Virus record (IMG/VR): IMGVR_UViG_2675903429_000012
From: a virus
Taxonomy: Duplodnaviria; Heunggongvirae; Uroviricota; Caudoviricetes
DNA length: 4,546 bases
Reading direction: 5' to 3' (one strand)
A program made the translations under genes and the position numbers. Positions 861 to 1,346 of the stretch are shown in pieces. Numbering within the stretch: the first letter of the stretch is position 1; every line of letters starts with the position of its first letter. Under the pieces are notes generated by a model. It was not told where the DNA came from. It did no database searches and worked only from the letters and a program-made list of their open reading frames with translations.

Positions 861-907
861 CAACAAAAAACCCGCCGAAACGCTGAGAGATCACAGCGAT
901 GGGCGGG
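861..907 (-). terminator. Rho-independent terminator of the hok transcript
   Basis: Minus-strand RNA reads CCCGCCC-AU-CGCUG-(8-nt loop)-CAGCG-UUUC-GGCGGG followed by UUUUUUGUUG. The shape resembles the 3' end I recall for plasmid R1 hok mRNA. Confidence 0.65.
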
Positions 908-948
908 TTAAGTGCGGGTGCGTTGAGGATGCCTGACACATCAGAGGT

Positions 949-976
949 GGGCGGGGATGGGATCAGCTCCCCGCCC
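949..976 (-). promoter_or_regulatory. GC-rich stem-loop in the hok 3' UTR (8-bp inverted repeat GGGCGGGG / CCCCGCCC, 12-nt loop), likely part of the fold-back (fbi-like) region
   Basis: Perfect 8-bp inverted repeat starting 9 nt after the hok stop. A comparable GC hairpin follows the hok stop in plasmid R1 as I recall it. Confidence 0.45.
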
Positions 977-984
977 GGTCACTC

Positions 985-1140
985 TTACTTCCTGGATTCG
1001 TAGTCTACGAAGACAGCGACCTCCGTCTGGCCGGTTCGGATTCGTACCTCACAGAGGTCTTTCCTCGTTACCAGTGCCGTCACTATGACGGTTAAACAGA
1101 TGACGATCAGGGCGATTAACATCGCCTTTTGCTGCTTCAT
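985..1140 (-). CDS. hok: Hok/Gef-family type I toxin, 51 aa (MKQQKAMLIALIVICLTVIVTALVTRKDLCEVRIRTGQTEVAVFVDYESRK)
   Basis: Near-identity over most of its length to chromosomal HokC/HokD as I recall them (single transmembrane helix, conserved DLCEVRIRTGQTEVAVF core). AAGGAG lies 9 nt upstream of the ATG at 1138-1140. Conserved hok 5' and 3' RNA elements flank it. Confidence 0.9.
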   Translation of the reverse strand: MKQQKAMLIALIVICLTVIVTALVTRKDLCEVRIRTGQTEVAVFVDYESRK

Positions 1141-1197
1141 AGCCTGCTTCTCCTTGCCTTTCGGCATGTAAGAGGCTAACCTACATGTGCAAAGCAT
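985..1197 (-). CDS. mok: mok-like overlapping regulatory reading frame, 70 aa, an in-frame N-terminal extension of hok (MLCTCRLASYMPKGKEKQA + Hok)
   Basis: Same arrangement as I recall for E. coli mokC/hokC (MLNTCR...KEKRAMKQHKAM...). The ATG at 1195-1197 lies inside the region complementary to the predicted sok RNA. Confidence 0.5.
   Translation of the reverse strand: MLCTCRLASYMPKGKEKQAMKQQKAMLIALIVICLTVIVTALVTRKDLCEVRIRTGQTEVAVFVDYESRK
1154..1182 (+). promoter_or_regulatory. Candidate sok antisense promoter (-35 TTGCCT at 1154-1159, 17-nt spacer, -10 TAACCT at 1177-1182)
   Basis: The -35 is complementary to the hok Shine-Dalgarno region, matching the R1 sok promoter layout as I recall it (TTGCGC-N17-TATCCT). 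Confidence 0.4.
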
Positions 1198-1260
1198 GAA
1201 ATTGGCCTCAGATTAATGTTAAGCGTCTTGCCGGACGCGTAATGTTAACTGGGGCTTTTC
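1189..1260 (+). ncRNA. sok: Candidate Sok-like antisense RNA, complementary to the mok start and hok mRNA leader; the 3' end is uncertain
   Basis: Position relative to the predicted promoter. Contains hairpin GCGUC-UUGCCG-GACGC at 1223-1238 and a U-rich stretch near 1255-1275. No clean intrinsic terminator was identified. Confidence 0.35.
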
Positions 1261-1316
1261 TCTATCTGCCTTTTGGTGTTCATGCCTGAAGCAGATAGCC
1301 TCAAGCACCCGCAGTC

Positions 1317-1346
1317 ATTCTACTTACCTCGCCAATATGAAATCAA
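1317..1346 (-). promoter_or_regulatory. Candidate hok/mok promoter (-35 TTGATT, 18-nt spacer, -10 TAGAAT on the minus strand), predicted TSS near 1309
   Basis: Plus-strand aatcaa at 1341-1346 and attcta at 1317-1322. The predicted 5' end (GGUGCUUGAGGCU...) resembles the R1 hok mRNA 5' end from memory. The conserved leader inverted repeat CTATCTGC / GCAGATAG at 1262-1269 and 1291-1298 follows. Confidence 0.4.

Follow-up and report, generated by a model that had tools for sequence, protein, structure and literature searches.

The question raised by positions 861 to 1,346 of the virus record IMGVR_UViG_2675903429_000012 (IMG/VR) was whether this DNA carries a complete type I toxin-antitoxin locus of the hok/mok/sok kind, and whether an intact appearance there says anything about its use to the cell. 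We analyzed the whole stretch of 4,546 nucleotides (nt), referred to here as the window. The original prediction, made from the sequence alone, had described the locus as complete and as possibly still maintained in a decaying prophage. Our conclusion, to which we give a probability of roughly 0.87, is that positions 864−1346 are an intact hokW-type hok/mok/sok locus on a lambdoid prophage remnant. Its hok/mok/sok identity is supported by family models, annotated homologues, RNA folding, and covariation. The locus is already known: RefSeq carries an annotation of it, and a close homologue, hokW-sokW, has been characterized experimentally.

The open reading frame (ORF) of 51 amino acids (aa) that had been called a Hok/Gef toxin matched Pfam family HOK_GEF (PF01848) with 81.1 bits against a cutoff of 22 (E = 4e-23), covering positions 1−42 of the 42 in the profile, and its product was 98% identical to HokW. 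At an identical locus the coding sequence (CDS) is annotated in RefSeq as WP_014532198.1. Homologues were compared in an alignment of 47 distinct hok mRNAs (alignment A2), in which the core of the hok Shine-Dalgarno (SD) sequence was nearly invariant. The in-frame extension that the original prediction had likened to mok proved to be a 70-aa ORF, beginning with the ATG at 1197 and open for the 57 nt through to the hok ATG. Its start codon was kept in 44 of the 47 homologous mRNAs; its frame relative to hok varied by lineage (columns 138−197). The hokW, hokC, and Photorhabdus types have it in frame, the R1 and P1-plasmid types have it in +1, and Erwinia-like types have it in +2, ending at the hok start. 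A variable frame combined with a conserved start codon, in line with published accounts of mok, fits a role for mok translation rather than for the mok peptide.

The start of the mRNA was fixed at G1310 because the match to Rfam family RF01794 begins there and extends from end to end of the model. This match, obtained by the covariance-model search that had been proposed as a check, covered minus-strand positions 1310−1135 with a score of 117 bits (E = 3.9e-27; the gathering score is 59; model positions 1−157 of 157). The family bears the name 'sok' in Rfam, yet it models the first 157 nt of the hok mRNA, and the structured 5' leader, with its tac-stem, Sok-target hairpin, and SD/dcb stem, fits it. 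When the 447-nt transcript was used as an nhmmer query, the homology of 60 or more hok loci began exactly at 1310, nucleotide 1 of the transcript, and two of the loci (L007 and L008) matched transcript positions 1 to 447. At the other end, the hairpin and run of six U residues that had been thought to close the transcript were present, with the hairpin at 909−870 and the U6 at 870−865. They come after fbi, the 3' element that folds back on tac at the 5' end, and most relatives, an R1-type locus (L004) among them, have similar hairpin plus U-run terminators 3' of fbi.

Folding of the full-length transcript gave a minimum free energy (MFE) structure of −189.6 kcal/mol, with z = −8.5. In this structure the two ends of the mRNA were paired as the original prediction had expected for tac and fbi, in a duplex of 12 base pairs (bp) with one bulged C and per-pair probabilities of 0.97−1.0. 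The tac element was nearly invariant in the 47 homologues, and the duplex contained a compensatory pair (columns 4/435), which 25 sequences have as U-A and 20 as C-G. For a wider comparison, 79 hok loci were taken from representative genomes, 62 of which could be scored for 5'/3' pairing. With 200 nt of 3' untranslated region searched, the best-pairing segment for the 5' 14 nt lay 45−57 nt past the hok stop codon in most of the 62. RNAalifold applied to the 47 mRNAs recovered the end-pairing helix unaided. The closed structure taken from the window MFE was 87.7% paired over these homologues, compared with 38−50% for slid partners, and 16 of its pairs had compensatory changes.

The leader inverted repeat that had been pointed out, CTATCTGC at 1262−1269 and GCAGATAG at 1291−1298, is present as the arms of a 10-bp hairpin. 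This hairpin was 93.4% paired across the alignment, with compensatory changes in 3 of its 10 pairs (e.g., A-U 26, U-A 13). The RNAalifold consensus preferred a small 5' metastable hairpin (columns 9−13/19−23, covarying) over the long one; the long hairpin was upheld when it was tested explicitly on the alignment. The small hairpin has been described as a co-transcriptional metastable structure (PMC9841398). The sequence elements, the family membership, and the closed fold with its covariation are established for this locus.

In the full-length MFE the anti-SD box, ucb, was paired with the mok SD sequence (pairs 56−58/104−106 and 60−62/100−102). In the 'open' structure of Rfam, ucb is the alternative partner of tac. 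The pairs of the open tac-stem (1−8/54−60) could form in 47 of 47 sequences, and those between the mok SD and dcb in 41−47 of 47, counted pair by pair. For the full-length mRNA the closed form had an advantage of 12.4 kcal/mol over the open form; when the mRNA was truncated at about nt 370, the open form was only 1.9 kcal/mol above the MFE. These calculated energies are compatible with a refolding switch and do not alone predict one. In plasmid R1 such a switch has been worked out: 3' trimming removes fbi, tac pairs with ucb, and the mok SD moves to the dcb stem, which is translatable and is the Sok target; this mechanism was re-validated by mutagenesis (PMC9841398). The GC-rich hairpin directly 3' of the hok stop codon may serve here as the point at which 3' exonucleolytic trimming halts, and may thus mark the 3' terminus of the active, truncated mRNA; the model for R1 is the source of this assignment (PMC9841398).

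On the plus strand, the sequence TTGCCT-N17-TAACCT (hexamers at 1154−1159 and 1177−1182) had been read as the sok promoter. 933W has the same two hexamers, and once the window's plus strand was aligned to 933W and K-12, the annotated sokW and sokC starts came to lie at 1189 and the end of sokW at about 1259. Because it is identical to the sokW promoter, the sok promoter of the window is credible: the sokW transcript has been detected, and mutation of its promoter in Sp5 abolishes antitoxin activity and unmasks HokW toxicity (PMC8621323). The predicted Sok RNA (71−73 nt) folded with −30.2 kcal/mol (z = −4.7), leaving about 14 nt free as a 5' tail, followed by a long hairpin (1204−1256) and a terminal UUUUCU. 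The mok start codon (1195−1197) has its complement in the tail, and the mok SD has its complement in the 5' arm of the hairpin. One detail of the original prediction did not hold, namely that the −35 hexamer of sok is complementary to the hok SD. The complement of this hexamer, AGGCAA (mRNA 152−157), only abuts the SD core GGAG (mRNA 158−161) and shares with the hok SD no more than the AA of AAGGAG.

By analogy with these homologues, transcription, processing, and regulation of the locus would proceed as follows. The minus-strand promoter (1346−1317) would give rise to a stable mRNA of about 447 nt, in whose closed form tac is locked to fbi and the mok SD is held by ucb, so that neither mok nor hok would be translated and Sok could not bind. 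Slow 3' trimming to the GC-rich hairpin past the stop codon would remove fbi. The freed tac would then pair with ucb, releasing the mok SD to form the SD/dcb target hairpin, and translation of mok, running in frame into hok, would drive translation of hok. The 51-aa Hok protein would enter the inner membrane and kill or arrest the cell. Sok, expected to be an unstable RNA of about 71 nt (1189−1259, plus strand), has full complementarity to the region where mok translation starts; as long as it continued to be made, it would block mok translation, and the resulting duplex would be targeted for RNase III.

Several points weigh against this reading. Several chromosomal hok loci of K-12 are inactive despite their similar look; examples are hokC, whose fbi was lost to IS186, and hokD, which has no leader, and our sequence comparisons reproduced both of these inactivations. 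The toxicity and Sok neutralization expected of this particular copy are drawn from homologues. The open form of the mRNA has no covariation signal, the tac-stem pairs being invariant, and the MFE of the truncated mRNA was the small 5' metastable hairpin and not the published open tac-stem form. The NCBIfam hidden Markov model for the Hok family scored 55 bits, under its cutoff of 73. The sok promoter, which has 7 of 12 consensus matches and is weak by that measure, escaped a generic promoter scan; a generic terminator scan called neither the hok nor the sok terminator, the loops of both exceeding the 8-nt loop limit of the scan. These misses by the generic scans are all that speaks for the view that the ORF and hairpins are chance features and not a real gene system. 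Against it stand the E-values of the Rfam and Pfam matches, the homology across the entire transcript in dozens of loci, and the covariation that backs the structure, and we consider it extremely improbable.

The positions of the elements of the locus and of the neighboring genes are given in Table 1.

Table 1. Features of the hok/mok/sok locus and of the surrounding prophage segment, in window coordinates
Feature	Position	Strand	Basis or remark
hok/mok mRNA promoter, TTGATT-18-TAGAAT	1317..1346	−	Sigma-70-like; promoter scan, 9/12 consensus matches
Full-length hok/mok mRNA, ~447 nt, predicted start G1310	864..1310	−	Fold and homology
tac element, GGGUGCUUGAGG, mRNA 5' end	1299..1310	−	Pairs with fbi in full-length MFE
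5' leader hairpin, CUAUCUGCUU / AAGGCAGAUAG, 10 bp	1262..1298	−	Inverted repeat
ucb, anti-SD box, AAGCCCCAG	1249..1257	−	Pairs with mok SD (closed) or tac (open)
mok SD, GAGG, 8 nt 5' of mok ATG	1206..1209	−	Read from sequence
mok frame, 70 codons, in frame with hok	985..1197	−	ORF list; layout as in mokW and mokC
dcb, GCCUC, base of Sok-target hairpin, open-form partner of mok SD	1172..1176	−	Rfam pairs 102-106/135-139
hok SD core, GGAG (in AAGGAG)	1150..1153	−	Read from sequence
hok toxin ORF, 51 aa + stop	985..1140	−	Pfam HOK_GEF PF01848
GC-rich hairpin directly 3' of hok stop	949..976	−	Conserved helix, compensatory pairs, columns 365-372/384-391
fbi element, CCUCAACGCACCC, folds back on tac	916..928	−	Full-length MFE
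Intrinsic terminator of hok mRNA, AACCCGCC...GGCGGGUU then U6	864..909	−	In MFE
sok promoter, TTGCCT-17-TAACCT	1154..1182	+	Hexamers identical to those before annotated sokW
Sok antisense RNA, predicted ~71 nt	1189..1259	+	Ends mapped from annotated sokW and sokC
DUF1367 gene	left part of window	−	Cut by left IS600
95-aa ORF	448..735	−	ORF list
QueH homologue (epoxyqueuosine reductase), intact	1368..2054	−	Pfam, 220 bits
137-aa zinc-ribbon-like ORF	within window	−	ORF list
DUF977 protein gene, intact	within window	−	Pfam and ORF list
DnaC/YdaV-like helicase-loader gene	3109..3738	−	Holds masked 257-nt N-run, 3119-3375
O-like replication gene, pseudogene	3745..4447	−	Three reading frames via two frameshifts

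Comparison with known systems placed the locus closest to hokW/mokW/sokW of the Stx2 (Shiga-toxin) phage 933W and the Sakai prophage Sp5 (AF125520), with about 92% DNA identity over 425 nt. The two Hok proteins differ in one residue (R50 in the window, E50 in HokW), and both loci have an in-frame 70-codon mok and are carried by lambdoid prophages. The 35 aligned differences between them leave the sok promoter hexamers, tac, fbi, ucb, both SD sequences, and dcb untouched, and the Sok start is the same. The differences cluster in two places. One is the region of the Sok tail and mok start, where 7 positions (mRNA 107−121) differ, and for that reason the Sok/target pair of the window appears to be a specificity variant distinct from that of sokW. 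The other is the post-stop hairpin, which is longer in the window than in 933W. Immediately 3' of fbi the two sequences diverge: the window has a terminator there, whereas in 933W (locus L002, ~2920−3010, minus strand) no terminator of the hairpin plus U-run kind is evident in the 90 nt that follow fbi. The locus of the window lies between queH and the nin-region genes, whereas hokW of 933W lies near attR.

The hokW-sokW pair was shown experimentally to be a toxin-antitoxin system of type I (Takada et al. 2021, PMC8621323). HokW is toxic, is found in the inner membrane, and is neutralized in a manner dependent on the Sok promoter; the antitoxin activity of sokW depends in part on RNase III and Hfq (PMC8621323). 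On induction, hokW-sokW speeds lysis and doubles phage release (PMC8621323). It is conceivable that the module of the window had the same role, not one in addiction or abortive infection but an induction-triggered aid to lysis, the purpose of which was lost in a remnant that can no longer be induced. In Sp5, sokW RNA vanishes under mitomycin C, HokW appears in a RecA-dependent manner about 1 h before endolysin, and deletion of the locus halves phage release (PMC8621323); the locus of the window is likewise prophage-borne and has all its regulatory elements in common with hokW. Its different position in the prophage argues against such a role. Moreover, because the IS600-bracketed remnant has a broken replication gene, an induction-linked function cannot be assumed. 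We hold this reading to be a tentative one, well short of even odds.

The hokC (gef)/mokC/sokC locus of K-12 has the same architecture, with an in-frame mok, an aligned Sok start, and an identical tac. HokC is 78% identical to Hok of the window, the hairpin of sokC is about 16 nt shorter, and hokC has a core chromosomal location, whereas the locus of the window is prophage-borne. In K-12 an IS186 end lies 20 nt past the hokC stop codon and has replaced fbi (L003, 1−332), whereas the window keeps fbi. On these sequence comparisons we class the architecture of the window as that of the hokW/hokC type.

The hok/sok locus of R1 is plasmid-borne and has a proven role in post-segregational killing. 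For R1, toxicity of Hok and its neutralization by Sok, with a stable mRNA and an unstable Sok, have been demonstrated (PMC9841398). The R1/F-type hok/mok/sok (parB) loci share tac, fbi, ucb, dcb, mok, Sok, and the Rfam and Pfam families with the window, and the R1-type locus L004 aligned with it along the whole mRNA. They differ in having mok in the +1 frame, annotated as a separate DUF5431 protein, and a C-G pair in the tac/fbi duplex where the window has U-A. Their Hok is only about 44−49% identical to that of the window (our comparison; PMC8621323).

In two FDAARGOS E. coli chromosomes in RefSeq, loci 100% identical to that of the window have their CDS named hokD, and the K-12 hokD protein (relF, Qin prophage) is highly similar to the Hok of the window. 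The DNA homology to K-12 hokD runs from the hok SD through the CDS into the 3' untranslated region, fbi included (mRNA ~157−408, 90% identity). However, K-12 hokD starts 71 nt after relE and has no tac, ucb, mok start, or sok (L086, 520−747), whereas the locus of the window has the full leader, is unlinked to relBE, and has queH and the 95-aa ORF as its neighbors. Assignment to the K-12 hokD/relF type was rejected on the presence of the full leader and the absence of relBE next door. Because K-12 hokD is without the first ~156 nt of the mRNA, the 'hokD' label reflects protein similarity only. In an NCBIfam search no HokD-specific model matched, so that the origin of the PGAP name 'hokD' was not reproduced.

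The window consists of a lambdoid prophage fragment (103−4421) with IS600 ends on both sides, identified by sequence match to annotated IS600: the right end at 1−102 and the left end at 4422−4546, in the same orientation. The 4.3-kb prophage segment thus lies between IS600 termini and might be a composite transposon; the edges of the window fall within both IS copies. Neither of the two IS600 junctions was present in any of the 5,426 complete E. coli genomes searched. The nearest sequences were the chromosome of S. flexneri SFBU1023 and that of the Shigella-like 'E. coli' ECMA0423, with 99.8% identity over 1553 nt. All of the genes run on the minus strand, and the QueH homologue adjoins the hok promoter directly upstream. 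The order queH-hok-DUF1367 was seen again in many E. coli prophages, such as those of APEC O1 and 042. At the other side, the insertion of the right IS600 removed residues 1−32 from the N-terminus of the O-like replication protein, the FDAARGOS_943 counterpart of which is a 260-aa hypothetical protein.

The original prediction had reasoned that a locus this intact in an otherwise decaying prophage is still maintained. The decay is evident in the IS600 ends and the two frameshifts, and it has come about mostly through IS insertion. Because the flanks are nearly identical (99.8%) to those of intact relatives, the decay is suggested to be recent. Maintenance does not follow, since most of the neighboring ORFs are undamaged as well and the locus shows no stronger conservation than its flanks. 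Relative to FDAARGOS_943 there were 0 differences in the 486 nt of the hok locus and 6 in 2530 nt of flanks; the number expected in the locus was 1.15, and the probability of finding none was about 0.32. The 1553 nt contained 3 differences from S. flexneri SFBU1023, and 2 of these were inside the hok locus, at 895 and 973. No special conservation of the locus relative to the flanks was found in either of these comparisons.

These same figures count toward a rival reading, in which the locus looks intact and is functionally silent or neutral, left behind only recently in a dying prophage, not kept by selection, and without mutations accrued so far. The disruption consists mainly of the IS600 insertions, with the two frameshifts confined to one gene; the QueH, DUF977, 137-aa, and 95-aa ORFs are as intact as hok, and the frequent inactivity of the K-12 chromosomal loci, mentioned above, points in the same direction. 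Set against this, the locus has no IS insertion, frameshift, or stop codon, and an intact hok with a dead sok would be unlikely to persist, because unregulated hok would be lethal. In addition, its regulatory elements all match those of the functional hokW-sokW exactly (PMC8621323). On balance a silent passenger is unlikely. Equally improbable, in our estimation, is the opposite case, that a hokW-type module has been kept under selection for a host-level function in this non-inducible remnant. Such a function might be to stabilize the surrounding segment against deletion or to abort infection by other phages, and the variant Sok tail and mok start, with its 7 differences from sokW, might insulate the module from hok/sok paralogues in the same genome. 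No measurement made here favors host-level selection over neutral persistence. We therefore retain the reading of an intact hokW-type hok/mok/sok locus and attach no claim of maintenance to it.

Sequence similar to the locus was found in 4,713 of the 5,426 complete E. coli genomes, at a median of 2 places per genome. The window adds one more intact prophage-borne copy of the hokW type, in a Shigella-like, IS-rich genome. A RefSeq-style annotation with only a 'hokD' CDS under-describes the complete hok/mok/sok module at the identical locus, where the mok frame, the Sok RNA, and the regulatory RNA elements can be assigned nucleotide-exact positions. The added copy could be of use in considering cross-talk among the several hok/sok paralogues of a genome and the fate of toxin-antitoxin modules in decaying prophages. 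The system is a textbook one, and the significance of this copy goes little beyond annotation and raises no new question.

Three further observations were made. Some of the hok loci collected lie on short contigs labeled Veillonella, Acinetobacter, Xanthomonas, Ferruginibacter, Streptomyces, and Oscillibacter (L010, L023, L028, L074, L075, and L076); the presence of hok in these six genera is most likely due to enterobacterial or plasmid contamination of the assemblies. Some loci from Photorhabdus, Enterobacillus, and Enterobacteriaceae (L043, L049, L057, and L062) had two matches to the hok mRNA within about 1.5 kb, which suggests tandemly duplicated hok/sok modules. In the window itself, a second promoter-like site on the minus strand (817−844, TTGATT-16-TAGAAT), which repeats both hexamers of the hok promoter, sits just 3' of the hok terminator and 5' of the 95-aa ORF.

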